11,135 bases of DNA from a virus (lineage: Duplodnaviria; Heunggongvirae; Uroviricota; Caudoviricetes): IMG/VR virus record IMGVR_UViG_2675903606_000019, positions 1-11,135 of that record; one strand, 5' to 3'. Each line of letters begins with the position of its first letter. Position 1 is the stretch's first letter. A program made the position numbers and the translations under genes. Below are positions 3,184 through 11,135 of this stretch, one piece after another. The notes under the pieces were generated by a model. That model saw only the letters and a program-made list of their open reading frames with translations, made no database searches and had not been told where the DNA came from.

Positions 3184-3483
3184 ATGAGAACATATTTATC
3201 TGGCTTGACTGCCAGCGGTTATGCACACCCAAAAATTATCCCCGGCGCTATTTATCTGGATAAGAACGGTAACAGAGTAACGGTAAAAGAACTGATGTTT
3301 GACCGTGTTTATTTTATCCGTGATGGATATTCATTTCTTAGTTCGCTGAACGTGGAGATCTTTATTTGCAGATTCCGGCGGGAAATCCCGACTTCCAGAA
3401 ATAACCATGTGTCACGTGTGGATGTGGATAAAAAACTACAGGAACTGAAAAACATGATTGCCGCGTGGAGAGAGCAGAAATGA
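3184..3483 (+). CDS. Hypothetical protein (99 aa), AT-rich cargo-like gene
   Basis: Track ORF MRTYLSGLTASGYAHPKIIPGAIYLDKNGNRVTVKELMFDRVYFIRDGYSF... RBS GGGGA upstream. Its stop TGA (3481-3483) overlaps the ATG (3480-3482) of the primase gene (ATGA coupling). Confidence 0.65.
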   Translation: MRTYLSGLTASGYAHPKIIPGAIYLDKNGNRVTVKELMFDRVYFIRDGYSFLSSLNVEIFICRFRREIPTSRNNHVSRVDVDKKLQELKNMIAAWREQK

Positions 3484-5603
3484 AAAAAGCGCCAAATTTA
3501 AAACACCAGCCGCGTGACAAAATGACGGAAGTCATCATTTTTGCGGGTAGTGATGCGTGGGCACATGCGAAGCAGTGGCAGGAACAGGACGGGCGACTGG
3601 CTGGCGACAGCGTGCCTCCTGTCTGGCTTGGAGAGCAACAACTTGCCGAACTGGATAAGCTGCAAATTGTGCCGGAAGGCCGAAAATCAGTACGCATATT
3701 CAGGGCCGGACATCTTGAGCCAGTAATGATCAAGGCGATTGGTCAGAAGCTGGCGGCGGCAGGCGTACAGGATGCAAATTTTTACCCTGATGGAATGCAC
3801 GGTCAGGAGGTGGAGAACTGGCGCGAATATCTAGCCCGTGAGCGGCAGAATCTTTCTGATGGTCTGGTTATTGAGTTTCCGGTAAAGAAAAAAGATACCG
3901 GAAGCCATAGCGATGACGAATTAAAGCCACGCGTTGAAAGTCGCGCCGATGGTGTTTTCTGGGTAACGCCCAAAGTGGATAAGCAGTCAGGCGAAATTAT
4001 CCGGCCTGAGACGTGGTTATGTTCTCCGCTTGAACTACTGGGAACGGGGACGATCGGTAAAGAGCATTACCGCGTGATGCGCTGGAAAAAAACCGCAAAC
4101 CATGAAGTCATCACAATGGCGATCCCGTGTGGTGGTATCGGCGACCGTGACGGCTGGCGGTTACTTAAAGATCACGGGCTGAACGTGACAACCAACGGCA
4201 AATACAGGGCAATCCTGGCGGACTGGATGCAGTTAAGCGGAAGCCATGAGGAATGGCAGTTAAGCACAACAACGGGCTGGCATTTTGGCGCGTACATCAT
4301 GCCGGACGGTTCGATCATTGGTGAATCTGAAAAACCGATCCTGTTTACCGGAAAAAGCGCCGCGATTAACGGTTATTCCGTGGCGGGCACGGCGGATGGC
4401 TGGCGCGACAGCGTGGCGCGGCTGGCTGGCGGTAATGCCTCAATGATGCTGGGTGTGGCAACGTCACTGGCAGCGCCTTTAATTGGCCTTGTGGGTGCTG
4501 ACGGCTTCGGGGTGCATCTTTTCGAACAGTCATCGGCAGGTAAGACCACCACGCAGAACATCGCATCAAGTTTATGGGGAGAGCCGGACGCGCAGCGGCT
4601 GACCTGGTACGGCACGGCGTTAGGTATTGCCAATGAGGCCGAGGCCCATAATGACGGGCTTTTACCACTGGATGAGATAGGCCAGGCCGGAAATGCGCGG
4701 GAAGTGTCAACGTCTGCTTATACGCTGTTTAACGGTTCAGGGAAATTGCAGGGGGCGAAGGATGGCGGCAACAGGGAGATCAAACACTGGCGAACGGTGG
4801 CAATCAGCACCGGAGAAATGGACGTTGAGACATTCCTCAAAAGTGAGGGGATAAAAGTTAAGGCGGGGCAGCTTGTCCGACTGCTTAACGTTCCGATGGA
4901 AAAAGCCACGAAATTTCACGAATACAGCAACGGTAAGGAACATGCTGACGCGTTAAAGGATGCCTGGACAGCAAATCACGGGGCGGCGGGTCGTGAGTGG
5001 GTTAAATGGCTGGCAGGCCACCAGCAGGAGGCAAAGGATACGGTAAGGGAATGCCGCGAACGGTGGCGCAACCTGATACCGGAGAGCTACGGCGAGCAGG
5101 TCCACCGCGTGGGTGAACGTTTCGCCATACTGGAGGCCGCGCTTGTGCTTTCCGGTCATGTAACTGGCTGGGTCGTGCAGGAATGCCGCGACGCGATACA
5201 GCATAACTTTAATGCCTGGGTGAAGGAGTTCGGCACGGGTAACAGGGAATTTAAACAGATGGTTGAACAGGCTGAGGCGTTTTTGTCGTCGTTTGGGTTT
5301 AGCCGCTACCTTCCGTACCCCAATACAGATGAGCGTGATTTACCGATTAAAGAGCTTGCCGGATACAGAAAAGGGAGCATTCGCAACGAAGATGACGAGA
5401 TGCGCTATTACACGTTCCCGCACGTGTTTGAGAGTGAGATAGCGAAGGGATTTAATCCGGCGCATTTTGCGCGTGCCCTGGATGCTGCCGGAATGCTGGA
5501 GAAGGGAAGCGATCGCCGATACAAAAAAAAGGCGCTGGGCAAGATTGGGGGTAAGCAGCATGTTTTTTACGTGCTGATGTTCCAGCCTGATGATGAAGAT
5601 TAA
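3480..5603 (+). CDS. Replication primase/helicase-type protein (P4 alpha / PICI Pri-Rep-like; NTPase with Walker A motif)
   Basis: About 707 aa (track ORF 3465..5603; the ATG at 3480 with ATGA overlap is preferred, ATG at 3465 or 3522 possible). Contains Walker A-like SSAGKTTT and is followed directly by an iteron array. Size and position match the satellite/prophage primase-helicase class. The exact domain family needs a profile search. Confidence 0.8.
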   Translation: MKKAPNLKHQPRDKMTEVIIFAGSDAWAHAKQWQEQDGRLAGDSVPPVWLGEQQLAELDKLQIVPEGRKSVRIFRAGHLEPVMIKAIGQKLAAAGVQDANFYPDGMHGQEVENWREYLARERQNLSDGLVIEFPVKKKDTGSHSDDELKPRVESRADGVFWVTPKVDKQSGEIIRPETWLCSPLELLGTGTIGKEHYRVMRWKKTANHEVITMAIPCGGIGDRDGWRLLKDHGLNVTTNGKYRAILADWMQLSGSHEEWQLSTTTGWHFGAYIMPDGSIIGESEKPILFTGKSAAINGYSVAGTADGWRDSVARLAGGNASMMLGVATSLAAPLIGLVGADGFGVHLFEQSSAGKTTTQNIASSLWGEPDAQRLTWYGTALGIANEAEAHNDGLLPLDEIGQAGNAREVSTSAYTLFNGSGKLQGAKDGGNREIKHWRTVAISTGEMDVETFLKSEGIKVKAGQLVRLLNVPMEKATKFHEYSNGKEHADALKDAWTANHGAAGREWVKWLAGHQQEAKDTVRECRERWRNLIPESYGEQVHRVGERFAILEAALVLSGHVTGWVVQECRDAIQHNFNAWVKEFGTGNREFKQMVEQAEAFLSSFGFSRYLPYPNTDERDLPIKELAGYRKGSIRNEDDEMRYYTFPHVFESEIAKGFNPAHFARALDAAGMLEKGSDRRYKKKALGKIGGKQHVFYVLMFQPDDED

Positions 5604-5625: not shown

Positions 5626-5941
5626 TGCGGGTTATGCGGGTTATCCTGTGTATAAGTGTATTAAGTGCATGAATATAAAGGAAACCAATAACCCGCACGT
5701 AACCCGCAAAAGGGCATTTATAACCCGCAAAAGCACGATTATAACCCGCAGGCGAATAACTGAAGTAACACCGGACAGTCATGCGTAACCCGCAGAAAAA
5801 ACCCAGTTTGCGGGTTATTTTGAGCGTTTTGCGGGTTACGTGGTGAGCAAATAATAAACAGGGTGTTTTGCAAAATACTGATATAAAAGGATAAAAAATG
5901 GTTAGCACGCTAAGATAACCCAATAACCCGCATAACCCGCA
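5626..5941. repeat. Iteron array: about 11-12 copies of TAACCCGCA in both orientations (probable replication origin)
   Basis: Reverse copies (TGCGGGTTA) at 5626-5634, 5635-5643, 5809-5817, 5830-5838. Forward copies at 5689-5697, 5700-5708, 5721-5729, 5742-5750, 5786-5794, 5924-5932, 5933-5941, plus a degenerate copy near 5914-5922. AT-rich stretches at 5855-5960. Lies immediately downstream of the primase/helicase gene. Confidence 0.75.
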
Positions 5942-5973: not shown

Positions 5974-6225
5974 ATGACCAGAACACGCAGAGACAGAACA
6001 GAGCCAAAATATAAAGCGTTAGACATGACTGAGCACACCTTAAAGGTGGCAATCAGAACGATAGACCGCCACACGCGGGAAGGATACGCGAAGGAACATC
6101 CCGACCTGATAAGCGCATTCATGACCACGGCGGCGGCAAACTTTGCCACGCTGACAGAACGGGAGATTGCCGAAGCGGAACAGGTAACAACCATCAACGT
6201 TAAAACCGGAGAGGTGGAATCATGA
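5974..6225 (+). CDS. Hypothetical protein (83 aa from ATG 5974; the track starts at TTG 5962)
   Basis: RBS GAGG at 5964-5967 precedes ATG 5974. Its stop overlaps the ssb start (ATGA at 6222-6225). No family recognised. Confidence 0.6.
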   Translation: MTRTRRDRTEPKYKALDMTEHTLKVAIRTIDRHTREGYAKEHPDLISAFMTTAAANFATLTEREIAEAEQVTTINVKTGEVES

Positions 6226-6632
6226 CAGCACAGATAGCGGCTTACGGTCGGCTGGTGGACGACCCGCAGGTAAAACAGACCAGCAAGGGCACACCGATGA
6301 CGCTGGCGCGTATGGCGGTATCACTGCCATGCAGTCAGGCACAGGACGGACAGGCGACGTTATGGCTATCGGTCATCGCATTTGGTAAGCAGGCCGACTT
6401 CCTGGCTAAACATCAAAAAGGCGACGTTGCCAGCGTATCCGGCACGATGCAGGTAAGCCAGTGGACCGGACAGAACGGGGAGACGCGTCAGGGTTATCAG
6501 GTTATTGCAGACAGCGTAATCAGTGCCCGTGCGGCACGTCCTGGCGGGAACAGACGCAAAACCACAGGCGCACAGGGTAATCAGCCACCAGCGGGAGGCG
6601 ATGACCCTTACGGTGATGATATTCCGTTCTGA
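6222..6632 (+). CDS. ssb: Single-stranded DNA-binding protein (SSB), short form with canonical acidic C-terminal tip
   Basis: 136 aa. OB-fold-like core (GRLVDDPQV..., W...FGKQADFL..KG..V...G......W....G..R) and C-terminus ending DDPYGDDIPF, matching the conserved SSB DDDIPF tail that recruits partner proteins. Confidence 0.85.
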   Translation: MTAQIAAYGRLVDDPQVKQTSKGTPMTLARMAVSLPCSQAQDGQATLWLSVIAFGKQADFLAKHQKGDVASVSGTMQVSQWTGQNGETRQGYQVIADSVISARAARPGGNRRKTTGAQGNQPPAGGDDPYGDDIPF

Positions 6633-6642
6633 GGGGGTGACG

Positions 6643-6915
6643 ATGGTACATGACCGCATAGCGGAAGAACTCGAAGCGAAAGGATTTTACCGGAGGGCGG
6701 CGGCGCGATGGGGTGAAGTCATGATGCTGGTGGAGACAGACAAGGAACGGCATCACATCACGATGCGACGGCTGGAATGTTCCAGGAAGGCACAGAGGCC
6801 ACCGGAGCCGCCGGATAACTTCGGAGACCTGAGAAAGGCAGTCGATCGCACTTATGCTGAAATGGGTATAGATGGTGTAAGCGATGAAATATGGCGTAAT
6901 TACCCAGGCAGCTAA
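6643..6915 (+). CDS. PerC-like small transcriptional regulator (90 aa)
   Basis: ATG at 6643 with RBS GAGGGGG 5 nt upstream (the track ORF 6523..6915 is in frame but its 5' part overlaps ssb). Motif EELEAKGFYRRAAARWGEVMM resembles the PerC-family signature (G-[FW]-[WY]-RRAA-x-RW) as I recall it. Confidence 0.55.
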   Translation: MVHDRIAEELEAKGFYRRAAARWGEVMMLVETDKERHHITMRRLECSRKAQRPPEPPDNFGDLRKAVDRTYAEMGIDGVSDEIWRNYPGS

Positions 6916-6992: not shown

Positions 6993-7071
6993 GCATATGA
7001 GGTTTTTTTTGGTGCACTGACACACATGATCGGGATCATCATTTCATAATTTGCAACACAACTCAACATCA

Positions 7072-7099
7072 TTGCATAAAATGCAATCATGATTATAAT
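7072..7099 (+). promoter_or_regulatory. Strong sigma70-like promoter for the capsid operon (-35 TTGCAT, 16-bp spacer, -10 TATAAT)
   Basis: TTGCAT at 7072-7077 and a perfect TATAAT at 7094-7099. Located about 55 nt upstream of the first late-operon start codon. Confidence 0.5.
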
Positions 7100-7103
7100 C
7101 AGA

Positions 7104-7119
7104 TCTGGATGAACATCCA
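7104..7119. promoter_or_regulatory. Perfect inverted repeat CTGGATG-AA-CATCCAG at the predicted transcription start
   Basis: Seen in the sequence. Followed within 6 nt by a T6 run (GATTTTTTAAG). Could be an operator or a 5' RNA hairpin/attenuator. A second dyad, ATGATC-GG-GATCAT, lies upstream at about 7026-7039. Confidence 0.45.
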
Positions 7120-7155
7120 GTTATGATTTTTTAAGTCAAAGAGGAATTTCTTACT

Positions 7156-7362
7156 ATGGCTGAAGAGAAAAAAGGCGGTGTTTCGGTGTACATAAGCCCC
7201 GACATCGTGAAGGCGCTCAAGGAACGCCACCAGCAGAACGTAAAAGCAGGCATTGCGGCAGGACTTGATCCGCTGGCGATGGTTGAGCCGTCAACAGGCT
7301 GGCAGGTACGCGCCTATTTACGCGCGGCGCTGGGTATGAATCAGGTTCACGGGGGTGAATAA
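7156..7362 (+). CDS. Hypothetical protein (68 aa), first gene of the capsid operon
   Basis: RBS GAGGA 10 nt upstream. Its stop TAA overlaps the major capsid gene start (TAATG at 7360-7364). No family recognised. Confidence 0.6.
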   Translation: MAEEKKGGVSVYISPDIVKALKERHQQNVKAGIAAGLDPLAMVEPSTGWQVRAYLRAALGMNQVHGGE

Positions 7363-8417
7363 TGACAGTAAAAGCAATAGCACTTAACACTAACCAGCTT
7401 TTTGTGTACCTGAATCGCGAGGATATTGCGGAATTTAAATTCAGTCCGCTGTTTACCGCGCTGTTTTTCCCGAACGTGGCGACATTCAACACACAGGACA
7501 TCATGTTAGATAACCTGGATATTGAAGAAGTCACTATGTCGGCGTTTTGTTCGCCTATGGTGGGTAGCCAGGTTCAGCGCGATAAAGGGTACGAAACAAG
7601 CATTATTCGCCCTGGCTACATGAAGCCAAAACACGAAATCGATCCATTAAAAACAATAATGCGCATGGCTGGAGAAGATCCAGCACAGCTTAACGACCCT
7701 ACCTACCGCCGTATGCGCCTGATTACTGGCAACATGCGCCGCCAGATAAACGCCATTAAAGCGCGCGTGGAATGGCTGGCGGTAAATGCGGTAACGACCG
7801 GAAAAAACATCATTGAGGGCGAAGGCATAGAGCGCTATGAAATCGACTGGAAGATACCGGAAAAAAACATCATAGAGCAGGCCGACGGTAAAAAATGGTC
7901 AGAGCAGGACAAAGACATACACGACCCAATCTATGACATTGAGCTATACGCAGATCAGGCAGGTTGCCCCGCCAACGTCATGATTATGGGCGTTGATGTA
8001 TGGCGCATGTTACGCAGCTTTAAAAAATTCCGTGAACTGTACGATCTCTCCCGTGGTTCAGAATCCGCCGCAGAGCTGGCATGTAAAAACCTGGGCGAAG
8101 TGGTGAGCTTTAAAGGCTATCTTGGTGATCTGGCCCTTATCGTCTATTCCGGCAAATACACTGACAGCGACGGCACAGAAAAATATTTCCTTGAGCCTGA
8201 TTTGCTGGTCCTGGGCAACACCAACAATAAAGGGCTGGTGGCCTATGGTGCGATTATGGAACAGGAAGCGGTAAGAACGGGCGCAACGCAAAACATGTTT
8301 TACCCGAAAAACTGGATTGAAGACGGCGATCCGGCGATTGAGTACGTGCAGACACACAGCGCACCGCAGCCTGTTCCGGCAGATATTCGCAAATTTGTTA
8401 CCGTCAAAATTGGTTAA
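7362..8417 (+). CDS. Major capsid protein, lambda gpE family
   Basis: 351 aa. Multiple blocks match phage lambda gpE as recalled: FKFSPLFTALFF (lambda FKFDPLFLRLFF), PGYMKPKHEIDP (PGYVKPKHEVNP), EDPAQLNDPTYRRMRLITGNMRRQ (EDPQNLADPAYRRRRIIMQNMRDE), YPKNWIEDGDPAIEYVQTHSAP (YPKNWVTTGDPAREFTMIQSAP). Confidence 0.9.
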   Translation: MTVKAIALNTNQLFVYLNREDIAEFKFSPLFTALFFPNVATFNTQDIMLDNLDIEEVTMSAFCSPMVGSQVQRDKGYETSIIRPGYMKPKHEIDPLKTIMRMAGEDPAQLNDPTYRRMRLITGNMRRQINAIKARVEWLAVNAVTTGKNIIEGEGIERYEIDWKIPEKNIIEQADGKKWSEQDKDIHDPIYDIELYADQAGCPANVMIMGVDVWRMLRSFKKFRELYDLSRGSESAAELACKNLGEVVSFKGYLGDLALIVYSGKYTDSDGTEKYFLEPDLLVLGNTNNKGLVAYGAIMEQEAVRTGATQNMFYPKNWIEDGDPAIEYVQTHSAPQPVPADIRKFVTVKIG

Positions 8418-8428
8418 CGGTGGATTCT

Positions 8429-8764
8429 ATGAACACTCCATACATTGAGTTATTTGCAGGCAGTCAGCAGGTATCAACGACGCTGGTACATTTTGCCGCT
8501 GATGCTGGCGTTATTCAGGAATTTACCCCGCTGATGCTGGCGGACAATGGCGAGTTTAAGCCGTGGGATGGTCAGGAATCTGGCAAGGCTGTTTATCTGA
8601 CCTCGTACCCCGTTGACACGTCGACGCAGAAATCAGCACAGTGCTATAAGACGGGGATATTCAATATCGCCGCCGTTAACTGGCCTGAGAGCGTCGACAC
8701 CGATGCGAAAAAATGCGCCGCCTTTGCGGGTTCTGGCGTATCCGTTCAGCCGCTGGCCCGATAA
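8429..8764 (+). CDS. Head decoration protein, lambda gpD family
   Basis: 111 aa from ATG 8429 (the track starts at GTG 8420); RBS GGTGGA 5 nt upstream. Matches lambda gpD blocks: TPLMLADNGEFKPWDG (lambda TPLMLDTSSRKLVAWDG), YKTGIFNIAAVNWPESVDTDAKKCAAFAGSGVSV ([35 protein letters not shown]). Confidence 0.85.
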   Translation: MNTPYIELFAGSQQVSTTLVHFAADAGVIQEFTPLMLADNGEFKPWDGQESGKAVYLTSYPVDTSTQKSAQCYKTGIFNIAAVNWPESVDTDAKKCAAFAGSGVSVQPLAR

Positions 8765-8776
8765 GCAGGGGGAACG

Positions 8777-9190
8777 ATGGCAACGAATGAAAGCATCATG
8801 GCGCTACCGCTGGCGAGTAAATTTAAAGCCGAAGCGCGGGCAATGGCTGACAGAGGGTTATCAACCTACGAGGCCGTATATCAACTCAACAAACTGGAAG
8901 AACAGGACAAGCCGCGCGCTGATGCGATTATGGCGCTTCATGAACATAACGACTATCAGCCGCTGTTACGTGCAATGGCAAACGTGCCATGTATTAGCGT
9001 CGATAATGCTCGTGAAATCCTGAACATGACCATAGAGCAGGAGCGCCCAAAGGTTGCACCAGAGCTTACCGCAGCCTTTGAAAACTTTATGGACATGCAC
9101 AGCCCGCAAGCCGTATCAGCTGGCATGGCATACGATGGCAGAAACCAGGGCGATGACGGCGACATCGATCACATACTGAAAACCATCTGA
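8777..9190 (+). CDS. Hypothetical protein (137 aa), last gene of the capsid operon
   Basis: RBS AGGGGGA 4 nt upstream of the ATG. Acidic C-terminus. No resemblance noted to lambda FI/FII/W as I recall them. Followed by a strong terminator. Confidence 0.65.
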   Translation: MATNESIMALPLASKFKAEARAMADRGLSTYEAVYQLNKLEEQDKPRADAIMALHEHNDYQPLLRAMANVPCISVDNAREILNMTIEQERPKVAPELTAAFENFMDMHSPQAVSAGMAYDGRNQGDDGDIDHILKTI

Positions 9191-9196
9191 GACAAG

Positions 9197-9220
9197 GCCG
9201 GAGAAATCCGGCTTTTTTTT
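9197..9220 (+). terminator. Strong rho-independent terminator (GNRA tetraloop hairpin plus T8)
   Basis: Stem GCCGGA/TCCGGC with GAAA loop and 8 T (9213-9220). The stem is identical to that of the terminator at 6922-6943. Confidence 0.8.
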
Positions 9221-9298
9221 ACGGGTCCTTTCCGGCATATGGACCCGTTACGGGGCGGCGACCTCGCGGTTTTTCGCTATTTATGAGCCTTTTCAGGG
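9221..9298. other. Lambda-type cos site (cosQ-like, cosN 12-nt cohesive end GGGCGGCGACCT at 9253-9264, start of cosB)
   Basis: ACGGGTCCTTTCCGG...GTTACG-GGGCGGCGACCT-CGCGGTTTTTCGCTATTTATGA closely matches the right and left termini of phage lambda as I recall them (right end ...ACGGGTCCTTTCCGGTGATCCGACAGGTTACG, left end GGGCGGCGACCTCGCGGGTTTTCGCTATTTATGA...). Sequence diverges from lambda after about 9298. Confidence 0.8.
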
Positions 9299-9358
9299 GG
9301 GTGGTGGTGGTTTTGTTGTTTGCTCTATCTTTATGAATGAAAAGGGAAAGATGCAAAC

Positions 9359-9396
9359 AATACACCAACCTGAAGCAGTAATTAAGTTGGTGTATT
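9359..9396. repeat. Perfect 11-bp inverted repeat AATACACCAAC-N16-GTTGGTGTATT abutting the terS start codon
   Basis: Read directly from the sequence. The right arm ends 2 nt before ATG 9398. Candidate cosB-type binding site or a translational-control hairpin. Confidence 0.5.
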
Positions 9397-9397
9397 A

Positions 9398-9940
9398 ATG
9401 AAATCGCACCTGATGAACAAAAAAAACATGGCGAAAAGCTGCCGTGTAAGTGCGACAGCGTTCGACAAGTGGGGAGTGACTCCCGTTGAACGTAAAGGCC
9501 GTGAGGCGTTTTACGATGTTGCCAGCGTGATAGACAATAGGGTTAACAATGCAATTAGCCAGCTTACAAACGACAAAGGCGATATTGATGATGATGAACT
9601 CTTACGAGTCAGGATCAGATTACTGACAGCACAGGCGGAGGCGCAGGAACTTAAAAACGAGCGCGATCGCGGTGACGTGATCGATACTGAGTTTTGCCTG
9701 TACGCGCTTTCAAAGCTGGCGAGTCAGATTTCATCAATCATGGACAGCCTCCCGCTTACTATGCAAAGGAGCTTCCCACAGATTACCCCCGCCATGCTGG
9801 ATAGGCTTAAAAGGGAAGTGGTTAAAGCCTGTAATGCCAGTGCCAGAGTTGCCGACAACCTCCCACAGATACTGGCTGATTACTTGAAAGAAACAACCGG
9901 AAACGTACCGGAAAAGTTGCAGCCGAATAAAGATAAGTAA
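9398..9940 (+). CDS. Terminase small subunit, lambda Nu1 family
   Basis: 180 aa. C-terminal two thirds align with lambda Nu1 as recalled: RLLTAQAEAQELKNERDRGDVIDTEFCLYALSKLASQISSIMDSLPLTMQRSFPQ (lambda RLTRAQADAQELKNARDSAEVVETAFCTFVLSRIAGEIASILDGLPLSVQRRFPE). N-terminal region is more divergent but still shows NKK...W...G.PV.R.G....YD.A.VI. Confidence 0.85.
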   Translation: MKSHLMNKKNMAKSCRVSATAFDKWGVTPVERKGREAFYDVASVIDNRVNNAISQLTNDKGDIDDDELLRVRIRLLTAQAEAQELKNERDRGDVIDTEFCLYALSKLASQISSIMDSLPLTMQRSFPQITPAMLDRLKREVVKACNASARVADNLPQILADYLKETTGNVPEKLQPNKDK

Positions 9941-9951
9941 CGTAGTACGCT

Positions 9952-10233
9952 ATGACTGAATCCGAAATACTGCGATTAATCCGCCGCGTCTCTGGAATCA
10001 GCCAGCAGGCTGACGAACAGACCACGCAGCCGGACAGCGTGACAGCCGAAAACTATGCGCGTGTTGTTGCTGAGGTGATGCGCCGTGATGGTATAGAACT
10101 TAATGGCGTGGATATGCGCAACATACGAACCAGAGTTCTTGAGTTGCTGGCCTACCGTCGCCGCGTGGAGATGTATCGGGAGAAGGAGAAAATAACGTAC
10201 CACTGGAAGAAGCCGGAGCGGTTGCGGCGGTAA
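9952..10233 (+). CDS. Hypothetical protein (93 aa) downstream of terS
   Basis: Track ORF MTESEILRLIRRVSGISQQADEQ... It occupies the position where lambda has the large terminase gene A, but is far too small to be a terminase. No family recognised. Confidence 0.55.
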   Translation: MTESEILRLIRRVSGISQQADEQTTQPDSVTAENYARVVAEVMRRDGIELNGVDMRNIRTRVLELLAYRRRVEMYREKEKITYHWKKPERLRR

Positions 10234-10526
10234 CTGGTTGATATTCCCGACGGACCAAAAATGGGTGGCTACATCCCTCGCTTCTGAGGACTGTTAACAA
10301 GCTGCCTGAAAGACAGTCACAAACTACGAAATTTTCGCAGTTTAATTAATGATCAGCTTAATCGCTAACCCGCTGATATTTTCGGAAACCTCAATTTGAG
10401 GAAGTCGGCGCGGTAACTCGCTGAACTTTAAGCAAAGCGCAAAATTGCGCTTGCTGAATAATCATTATGATTACGCAGATGATTAAGGAATGACCGAAGG
10501 CGGAAATTCGCCTGTGGTTAATGGGG

Positions 10527-10546
10527 GAGTTGCAGATCTGCAACTC
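10527..10546. repeat. Perfect 20-bp palindrome GAGTTGCAGATCTGCAACTC
   Basis: Read directly from the sequence. A perfect 20-bp palindrome is very unlikely by chance in 11 kb. Confidence 0.7.
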
Positions 10547-10552
10547 GACCAT

Positions 10553-10639
10553 GAAACTACGGAAACTACCCGTAGTTTGGGTAGTAAGAGTAACACCCAG
10601 ATTTTGGGTCTTACTCGTGATACCCAAATTTGGGGTATC
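10553..10639. repeat. Half-site array (AAACTAC x2, then GTAGTTT and a partial GGGTAGT) followed by two adjacent stable hairpins / palindromic sites
   Basis: AAACTAC at 10554-10560 and 10563-10569, GTAGTTT at 10572-10578, partial copy at 10579-10585. Hairpin GAGTAA-c-ACCCA-gattt-TGGGT-c-TTACTC (10588-10616). Hairpin GATACCC-aaatttg-GGGTATC (10619-10639). The two ACCCA...GGGT units are direct repeats of a palindromic site about 27 bp apart. Confidence 0.55.
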
Positions 10640-10902
10640 AGTGGCAACCATAACGACTTTCGTTACGGTTGATGCTTTTACCCCATTGGGGGAAAGGTAT
10701 TACGATAATCATAACACCTACCGAACAGGTAAAGCCCACCAGCCTGATTAACGTTTAACCGGAAAAAAATTCCGGTAGGTGGGGATCCCCATATCGACAT
10801 TAACGCCCCTCATGAATTGGTGCGCTTCCCCCTGGAAAGATGATCCGCCTGTATATTTCTTGTGTCTATTTGTTCCACGTTGTTTCATACAGTGCACCGA
10901 AC

Positions 10903-10924
10903 GGTGTAGTCACTGGTGTAGTCA
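10903..10924. repeat. Tandem direct repeat GGTGTAGTCA x2 (12-bp period) near the right junction; candidate integrase arm-type sites
   Basis: GGTGTAGTCA at 10903-10912 and 10915-10924, followed by TTTTGCG repeats at about 10924-10950. About 75 bp inside the proposed junction. Confidence 0.4.
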
Positions 10925-10976
10925 TTTTGCGATTTTTGGCACTTTTTGCGGTGAAAATTATTTAATTAAATCAACG

Positions 10977-11135
10977 TGTTATGTGAAATAAGTTATATAT
11001 AACAGCAATAAATAATGCGAGAATAAACGGCACGATGATCTCGGTGGCAAAACGGATACCGCAGAGAATAATGACCAGCATTCCCAACATAATGACGATT
11101 TTTAGGCCATTGAGCGTGATGATCGGCTTTGCCAT
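10977..11135 (-). pseudogene. tqsA: Truncated 5' fragment of a tqsA-like (AI-2 exporter family) membrane protein gene; likely chromosomal flank interrupted by the element
   Basis: Minus-strand ORF of 52 codons, [52 protein letters not shown], then TAA. The first 46 or so residues match the N-terminus of E. coli TqsA/YdgG as I recall it; the reading frame then diverges and stops, where the native protein continues for about 300 more residues. Confidence 0.55.

Follow-up and report, generated by a model that had tools for sequence, protein, structure and literature searches.

The window analysed in this work (the whole stretch of DNA, 11,135 nucleotides) carries a compact island in which all genes are oriented in one direction. 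Up to the cos site, the following genes were identified (by gene calls and family profiles).

1–1218, + strand: integrase
1593–1781, + strand: AlpA-like regulator
3465–5603, + strand: DUF927 primase/helicase
6222–6632, + strand: SSB
inside 6523–6915, + strand: PerC-family ORF
7362–8417, + strand: lambda-E-like capsid protein
8420–8764, + strand: lambda-D-like decoration protein
8777–9190, + strand: 137-aa protein, upstream neighbour of cos

The same element lies between the two halves of tqsA in Escherichia coli RM10466, the closest complete genome copy. Gram-negative PICIs are defined by an integrase, AlpA, a primase, a capsid-related gene and terS (PMC10085698); in line with the criteria of that study, the island genes run in one direction over about 10–12 kb, and tail and lysis genes are absent. 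By gene content and insertion point, the whole window is a PICI-type phage satellite of E. coli inserted in tqsA. Gene calls and Pfam and PHROG profiles detected no large terminase (TerL), portal, tail or lysis gene in the window, and neither TerL nor portal was found in any sister island examined. The small terminase gene (terS) has no overlapping TerL gene downstream, unlike in phages, as expected of a satellite. A cf-PICI assignment was rejected, the island having no TerL, portal or connectors of its own (only the E-like, D-like and 137-aa proteins were found), and a P4-like assignment was ruled out on gene content. Of 5426 complete E. coli genomes, 763 carry the module formed by cos and terS, and a small-terminase annotation of the gene already exists in RefSeq for hundreds of genomes; a genome-contig search with the TerS protein gave no confirmed locus.

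Three observations concern the rest of the island. The PerC-family ORF (6523–6915) overlaps the 3' end of the SSB gene and encodes a homologue of PerC-family transcriptional activators (Pfam E 4e-44); PerC-like proteins are virulence gene regulators in pathogenic E. coli. The 341-aa ORF at 1839–2864 has an odd composition and no family match, and is probably not real, since RM10466 annotates several small opposite-strand genes there. The last ~900 bases (10240–11135) contain no convincing gene and end in a tqsA fragment, by comparison with RM10466.

The packaging region is composed of the elements listed below, in which bp numbers count from 9253, the first base of the cohesive end (bp 1).

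9194–9219, + strand: terminator-like hairpin AAGGCCGGA/TCCGGCTTT followed by a T run (terminator scan, inverted-repeat search)
9222–9235, + strand: cosQ-type element CGGGTCCTTTCCGG, identical in lambda, phage PhiR5_1 and the LR-51 helper prophage
9250–9269, + strand: cosN, ACG-GGGCGGCGACCT-CGCGG, identical to annotated lambda cos
9270–9295, + strand: spacer between cosN and cosB, I2 equivalent (alignments)
9296–9323 (bp 44–71), + strand: putative TerS site GGGGGGTGGTGGTGGTTTTGTTGTTTGC, R3 equivalent (conservation, offset)
9353–9370, − strand: putative R2-equivalent site GCAAACAATACACCAACC, inverted (inverted-repeat search, conservation)
9386–9396 (bp 134–144), + strand: putative R1-equivalent site GTTGGTGTATT (inverted-repeat search)
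9398–9940, + strand: terS, 180-aa Nu1-family small terminase (Pfam, PHROG, BLAST)
9952–10233, + strand: 93-aa ORF, function unassigned, next gene after terS

The cohesive end and its immediate flanks had been predicted to match lambda, and the alignment run here bears this out: GTTACG-GGGCGGCGACCT-CGCGG shows no difference from the lambda reference (the DE3 copy, in which cos is annotated). The lambda cohesive end forms the predicted 12-nt 5' overhang, 9253–9264. A search for ACGGGGCGGCGACCTCGC gave a single hit in the window (9250–9267), for 0.01 matches expected by chance; with this single cosN match, the window holds no second cos site of the kind present in EcCICFT073. The only change in the beginning of the spacer is a G to T at 9270 (bp 18), after which TTTTCGCTATTTATGA is identical to lambda up to 9285. 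Conservation was assessed on 11 distinct upstream regions, from E. coli islands and from Enterobacter- and Citrobacter-type islands, the latter two gathered through protein-database homologues of TerS and their encoding contigs. In this alignment CGGGTCCTT (cosQ) is invariant in all 11 sequences, as is the spacer core CGCTATTTATGAG at 9275–9287; cosN is the same in all but one of them. The distance from cosQ to cosN in the window is about 30 bp, as in lambda. The terminator-like hairpin directly follows the 137-aa gene and extends into cosQ; the same element is found upstream of cos1 in an Rpp-type sister island (L004). No promoter-like site for terS was found in the scan, and the terminator-like hairpin precedes cos.

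BLAST searches matched many lambda-like phages with 84% identity over 9216–9298 (E 8e-15) and PhiR5_1 with 96% identity. The 31-nt stretch from cosQ to cosN is identical to PhiR5_1 at all 31 positions, compared with 23 of 31 for lambda (8 differences), so that the closest helper-type flank is PhiR5_1-like rather than that of lambda itself. The helpers are likely to be found among lambdoid phages that have the cohesive end of lambda, and for the window's island the flank identity points to PhiR5_1-like ones; a literature search on phage PhiR5_1 returned nothing relevant.

The resemblance to lambda ends at about 9288–9295. As the original prediction proposed, cosB diverges from there on: the alignment detected no similarity to lambda cosB downstream, and no lambda R sequence is present in the island cosB. 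The predicted G-rich run is GGGGGG(TGG)3T at 9296–9311, with (GGT)4 at 9300–9311 (bp 48–59), and a GGT run this long was obtained in none of 5000 dinucleotide shuffles. An R3-like core, GGTGGTGGT.TTGTT, is located at 9303–9317 (bp 51–65); it is unique in the window and invariant in the 11 island sequences, whose TerS proteins are 57–100% identical. Its offset matches that of lambda R3, which lies at bp 50–65 and is followed by R2 in inverted and R1 in forward orientation (PMC9026076), and that of N15, which carries GAGGTTGTTGTTTAA in the bp 48–62 interval to which its R3 was mapped (PMC9026076).

The R3-like GGTGGTTTTGTTGTTTGC and the R2-like GCAAACAATACACCAACC (9353–9370) form an 18-nt imperfect inverted repeat. 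The R2-like motif, AATACACC[A/C]AC, is nearly invariant and is kept in Enterobacter and Citrobacter islands with only 57–59% identical TerS proteins; its counterpart is AATACAACAACC in a lambdoid prophage of E. coli O103 ML775 (L005) and in the second cos site (cos2) of L004, the R2 site of the island differing from this type by a single base. The R1-like arm overlaps the ribosome-binding region of terS and is restricted to the lineage formed by the window, L001 and L015, being degenerate in L006, L016 and L017. Taken together, the R-like sites of the island (R3 forward, R2 inverted, R1 forward) reproduce the order, orientations and offsets of lambda with sequences of their own. The bases around the conserved cos blocks vary across the 11 upstream regions. 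Position and conservation identify the GGT run as the equivalent of R3; among the non-coding elements of the island family it is the best conserved. The A+T-rich segment between R3 and R2 was scanned for an IHF site, and no match to WATCAANNNNTTR was found with two mismatches or fewer; the same scan recovers lambda I1 with one mismatch.

A perfect 11-bp inverted repeat was predicted to abut the terS start and is indeed there: AATACACCAAC at 9359–9369 (bp 107–117) and GTTGGTGTATT at 9386–9396 are complementary at 11 of 11 positions across a 16-nt gap, and the repeat ends one base before the terS ATG at 9398. A perfect inverted repeat of at least 11 nt was present in 3 of 5000 shuffles. By location, its arms correspond to R2 and R1. 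The perfect palindrome is not a feature of the family, because only the first arm is conserved outside the window's lineage; in the alignment it is a lineage-specific addition, the first arm of which behaves as R2.

Taken alone, this repeat could instead form an RNA hairpin that masks the ribosome-binding region of terS and limits translation, rather than providing TerS sites. The predicted RNA fold of 9345–9415 pairs both arms to one base before the AUG (-18.1 kcal/mol, z -3.6), and a Shine-Dalgarno-like AGGTG/GAGG is present at the corresponding position in relatives. However, the hairpin is not conserved, as the L006-type region folds no better than shuffles (z -0.39), and the first arm is conserved alone across genera, at the position of lambda R2. 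A purely RNA-based role therefore seems doubtful, although the RNA-hairpin and DNA-site readings are not mutually exclusive; the arms are considered below as putative TerS sites.

The adjacent gene had been described as encoding a homologue of Nu1, the lambda small terminase, and all family searches agreed. TerS scores 83 bits against Pfam Phage_Nu1 (PF07471, cut-off 30), matches phrog_57 over its full length (residues 1–175, E 2.9e-53) and aligns end to end with lambda Nu1 (35% identity over 179 aa, E 1e-34). Its N-terminal DNA-binding domain is of the N15 type and is followed by a central helical region 37–50% identical to phage TerS, a Nu1-like C-terminal region and a 13-aa tail. Residues 128–167 align with the last 40 residues of Nu1 and are 28–48% identical to phage TerS; in lambda Nu1, the C-terminal region is the TerL-binding part. 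A single-sequence PDB search with TerS returned nothing meaningful; only the profile of the island family reached lambda TerS, aligning residues 6–84 with the solved fragment 6HN7_B (E 0.005). The order of secondary structures in the AlphaFold2 model of TerS fits such a domain, but the model is of too low confidence to be relied on (mean pLDDT 60, pTM 0.29).

Island terS alleles show dN/dS values of 0.08–0.22 throughout, indicative of purifying selection. Their synonymous divergence increases from 0.12 in the DNA-binding domain to 0.9–1.1 in the C-terminal third, and this about ninefold 5' to 3' rise argues for a functional gene that is mosaic by recombination. It was also observed that a conserved 13-aa tail, GNVPEKLQPNKDK, ends the TerS proteins of E. 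coli islands and is absent from phage TerS.

The N-terminal 46 residues are the most conserved part of TerS (76–100% identity among islands). They are 60% identical to N15 gp1 and 69% identical to the L005 prophage TerS, compared with only 35–37% for lambda, phage 21 and PhiR5_1. The cosB regions show the same relationship. L005 carries GAGTTGTTGTTTAA, an inverted AATACAACAACC and a forward GGTTGTTGTAT; the R core is GGTTGTTGT in N15 and L005 and GGTGGTGGT in islands, the island sites having the N15/L005 pattern with T-to-G changes (GGTGGTGGT and GGTTGGTGTAT). In the presumed recognition helix, Thr20 is invariant in islands and is replaced by Gln in N15 and L005. The covariation of the T-to-G change with Thr20 is suggestive rather than statistical, because it represents one evolutionary event. 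The island cosB is 77–79% identical to the cosB of L005 and of L004 cos2, and in this comparison is a derivative of the N15/L005-prophage type, not unrelated to phages. The divergence of this cosB in the original prediction holds with corrections: it is non-lambda and conserved in the island family, but it is related to N15/L005 phages and its palindrome is not family-wide. N15 and L005 have the DNA-binding domains closest to that of the island, and their R sites share both shape and offset with those of the island; they differ from it in being complete phages in which TerL adjoins TerS, and the N15 cohesive end differs from the lambda sequence of the island. Cross-recognition by N15/L005-type phages is possible, since few bases separate their cosB from that of the island.

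Related islands were collected from E. coli, Enterobacter- and Citrobacter-type genomes (the TerS proteins of the latter two being only 57–59% identical), and in all of them a capsid-like gene is followed by a decoration-like gene, a small gene, cos and terS. A sister island in E. coli LR-51 interrupts the portal gene of a lambda-type prophage that encodes an almost unchanged lambda Nu1 and carries the lambda R3, R2 and R1. The cos sites of this island and of its host prophage are identical from bp 1 to bp 34 and share 28 of 31 positions from cosQ to cosN, and their cosB regions are unrelated. The C-terminus of the LR-51 island TerS matches the host prophage TerS at 15 of 40 positions and PhiR5_1 TerS at 18 of 40, so that in this one natural pair a helper-specific matching of the TerS C-terminus is not demonstrated.

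A second informative relative is L004, which stood in our comparisons for islands of the EcCICFT073 kind. It is 91% identical to the window over 7006–9294, up to bp 42 of cos, a stretch that takes in the capsid-like genes, the terminator, cosQ, cosN and the spacer, and identity resumes at 89% over 9952–10245; in the interval between, L004 has rpp together with another cosB and an additional cos in inverted orientation. The L004 146-aa protein matches RppC 6HLK (E 2.4e-31). The swap at bp 42 between L004 and the window indicates that the recognition protein was exchanged jointly with its site.

Several further observations were made on sister islands. TerS-type islands L007–L012, from Enterobacter-type contigs, sit in the capsid E gene of lambdoid prophages and, with L017 and L018 (portal gene, E. 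coli LR-51), are helper-embedded PICIs carrying terS. The Citrobacter island (L013/L014, about 5880–5900) has CTACG-AGGCGGCAGCGT-CGCAG as its cohesive end, whereas its cosB is the GGTGGTGGT type common to the family; from this change of cosN alone it follows that cosN and cosB evolve as separate modules; its cohesive end points to a helper with another cosN. In L001 (14845–14920) and L004 (3001–3151), a second, inverted cos lies between terS or rpp and the 93-aa gene. The cosB of cos2 looks helper-type, resembling lambda in L001 (GATCCGTTCTTCTTC) and N15/L005 in L004. In the window, the place of this second cos is taken by only 11 bp. In cos1 of L004 (3753–3790), the Rpp-type site ACACCACCACCAC (bp 53–65), which is the R3 proposed in the literature for Rpp islands, corresponds to the (GGT)n core of the window read as its reverse complement. 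The window (bp 48–59) and Rpp islands thus share a repeat and its place but not its orientation, and Rpp and TerS share no sequence similarity.

The sequences directly show what the cos elements are, where they lie and how they are conserved, that TerS is a complete homologue of Nu1, that TerL is absent, and how the cassettes are built. From these we infer binding of TerS to its sites, contact with TerL, cutting and redirection, and we consider it probable that the island carries a packaging module made of a helper-type cutting site, a private cosB and its own TerS that recruits the helper TerL. Because cosQ, cosN and the spacer are kept in lambda-like helper form, the helper large terminase (gpA type) would be able to nick the shared cosN at 9253–9264, and the shared cosQ would serve it for packaging termination. 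The island TerS would bind the private R sites through its N15-type winged-helix domain, anchoring TerL on island DNA, and its Nu1-like C-terminal region would recruit the helper TerL. Terminase activity of the helper would thereby be diverted to island concatemers, which would carry over to a cos system the logic established for headful packaging with SaPI TerS. The original prediction that the island supplies its own recognition subunit with a cognate cosB is supported in this comparison by the complete Nu1 homologue, the lack of TerL and the LR-51 pair. Since it has a full TerS and its own cosB, transfer of the island is predicted to be independent of the helper's TerS.

An Rpp-like mode of action was considered, in which the island TerS would form mixed oligomers with the helper TerS, block recognition of the phage cosB and retarget the mixed complex to the island cosB, so that the helper TerS would still be needed. 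Sister islands encode Rpp in the same slot, downstream of the same cosQ/cosN, Rpp heterodimerises with lambda TerS through a TerS-like domain (PMC6739421), and the similarity of the central region to phage TerS makes mixed oligomers conceivable. However, Rpp is a shorter protein (139–154 aa), reported to be devoid of the C-terminal TerL-binding part (PMC9026076), which borrows the helper's TerS by pairing (PMC6739421; PMC9026076), whereas the island TerS aligns with Nu1 to its end; being complete, it needs no bridge to TerL. No similarity between TerS and Rpp was detected (BLAST E 1.3, and no match to 6HLK with the protein or the profile), and the island was not assigned to the Rpp type, as the same searches identified no Rpp homologue. 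Such a mode is thus unlikely.

Still less probable is the absence of any private specificity, the island having copied cos and terS from a lambdoid helper of the N15/L005 type and the extra terS merely raising dosage. P4 and SaPIbov5 are satellites that carry their helper's cos, and the 77–79% identity of the island cosB to those of L005 and L004 cos2, the 69% identity of the DNA-binding domain to L005 TerS and the R2 sites one base apart would all agree with a copy. Nevertheless, the GGTGGTGGT core and Thr20 are fixed in 11 of 11 island sequences and both are unlike N15 and L005; the sole island seen with a probable helper (LR-51) resides in a prophage whose cosB and Nu1 are of lambda type and not of N15 type; and the cosQ–cosN stretch matches PhiR5_1, whose cosB and TerS DNA-binding domain differ. 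Finally, E-like, D-like and Nu1-like genes without the rest of the head operon, together with one frameshifted E. coli terS copy, could suggest a decaying head-region remnant of a lambdoid prophage with no present function, which is highly improbable as the compact gene order with integrase, AlpA-like and primase genes recurs in three genera and in the 763 E. coli genomes, terS is under purifying selection and the non-coding R3 block is invariant.

Assuming a private packaging module, the comparisons raise a further hypothesis, which is tentative: TerS could be a re-assortable two-part adaptor, and the Rpp cassette an alternative plug-in at bp ~42 that uses the same (GGT)n in opposite orientation. 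The first part would be a private cassette, cosB with the DNA-binding domain, to which the island lineage remains tied; the second, the cosQ/cosN flank and the TerS C-terminus, might recombine to follow the available lambdoid helper. If this is true, Rpp and the island TerS are two solutions on one recognition code, and the family is a set of orthogonal packaging specificities.

The window belongs to the same island family as EcCICFT073 and the Rpp-type cos PICIs (Fillol-Salom 2018, 2019; Murialdo & Feiss 2022), and a lambda-like cosQ/cosN with a foreign cosB was already published for EcCICFT073 (PMC6092414, PMC6739421). The logic is common, a helper-type cosN with an island-specific cosB beside the gene of the protein that reads it. 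The protein is Rpp (144–153 aa) in those islands and a complete 180-aa Nu1 homologue in the window. Three R-like sites are present in the cosB of the window, against one at most in published descriptions of Rpp islands.

In SaPI1 and SaPIbov1 of Staphylococcus aureus, as proposed here, a satellite TerS homologue works with the helper TerL on the satellite's own site; SaPIs differ in their headful (pac) packaging and unrelated TerS family, the island being of cos type, and in that the island shares the cutting site with its helper, only the anchoring site being private. Nothing resembling Ppi, an inhibitor of the helper TerS, was identified in the island. Helper-embedded PICIs of the 11capE type (PMC10111431) resemble the sister islands located inside lambdoid prophages, while the window's island is in chromosomal tqsA (by comparison with RM10466); 11capE was reported to lack terS (PMC10111431).

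The notion of a satellite TerS homologue that directs the helper TerL to the satellite's own site has been quoted for PICIs in general (PMC10085698) and appears also in a bioRxiv cf-PICI paper; terS is listed among the core components of PICIs, with packaging redirection as its assumed role (PMC10085698). A 2022 overview of strategies names only carriage of the helper cos, SaPI TerS and Rpp, and our literature searches found no paper testing the Nu1-type TerS of a cos PICI or describing its cosB. What is added here is the anatomy of this cosB, the N15-type ancestry of the specificity and the cassette relation to Rpp islands. To our knowledge, Rpp is the sole packaging-piracy route tested for cos-type islands. 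The family concerns about 1 in 7 complete E. coli genomes, and its members carry virulence regulators and defence genes. The reading of TerS sites in lambda is hard to settle in vitro because binding is weak; the island provides defined bases (the GGTGGTGGT core) and a residue (Thr20) for probing how lambda-type small terminases read DNA.

A last observation concerns the 137-aa protein encoded immediately upstream of cos (8777–9190). It belongs to phrog_1999, a family with no assigned function, and has no PDB match; over residues 45–119 it weakly resembles a 'head maturation protease' family at the C-terminal end of the latter (E 7e-10), and it may be a scaffold-like fragment. Its gene forms, with the E-like and D-like genes, a three-gene capsid module, and in the sister islands L006 and L007–L014 it is replaced at the same slot by a gene encoding a 127-aa AlpA-family protein.
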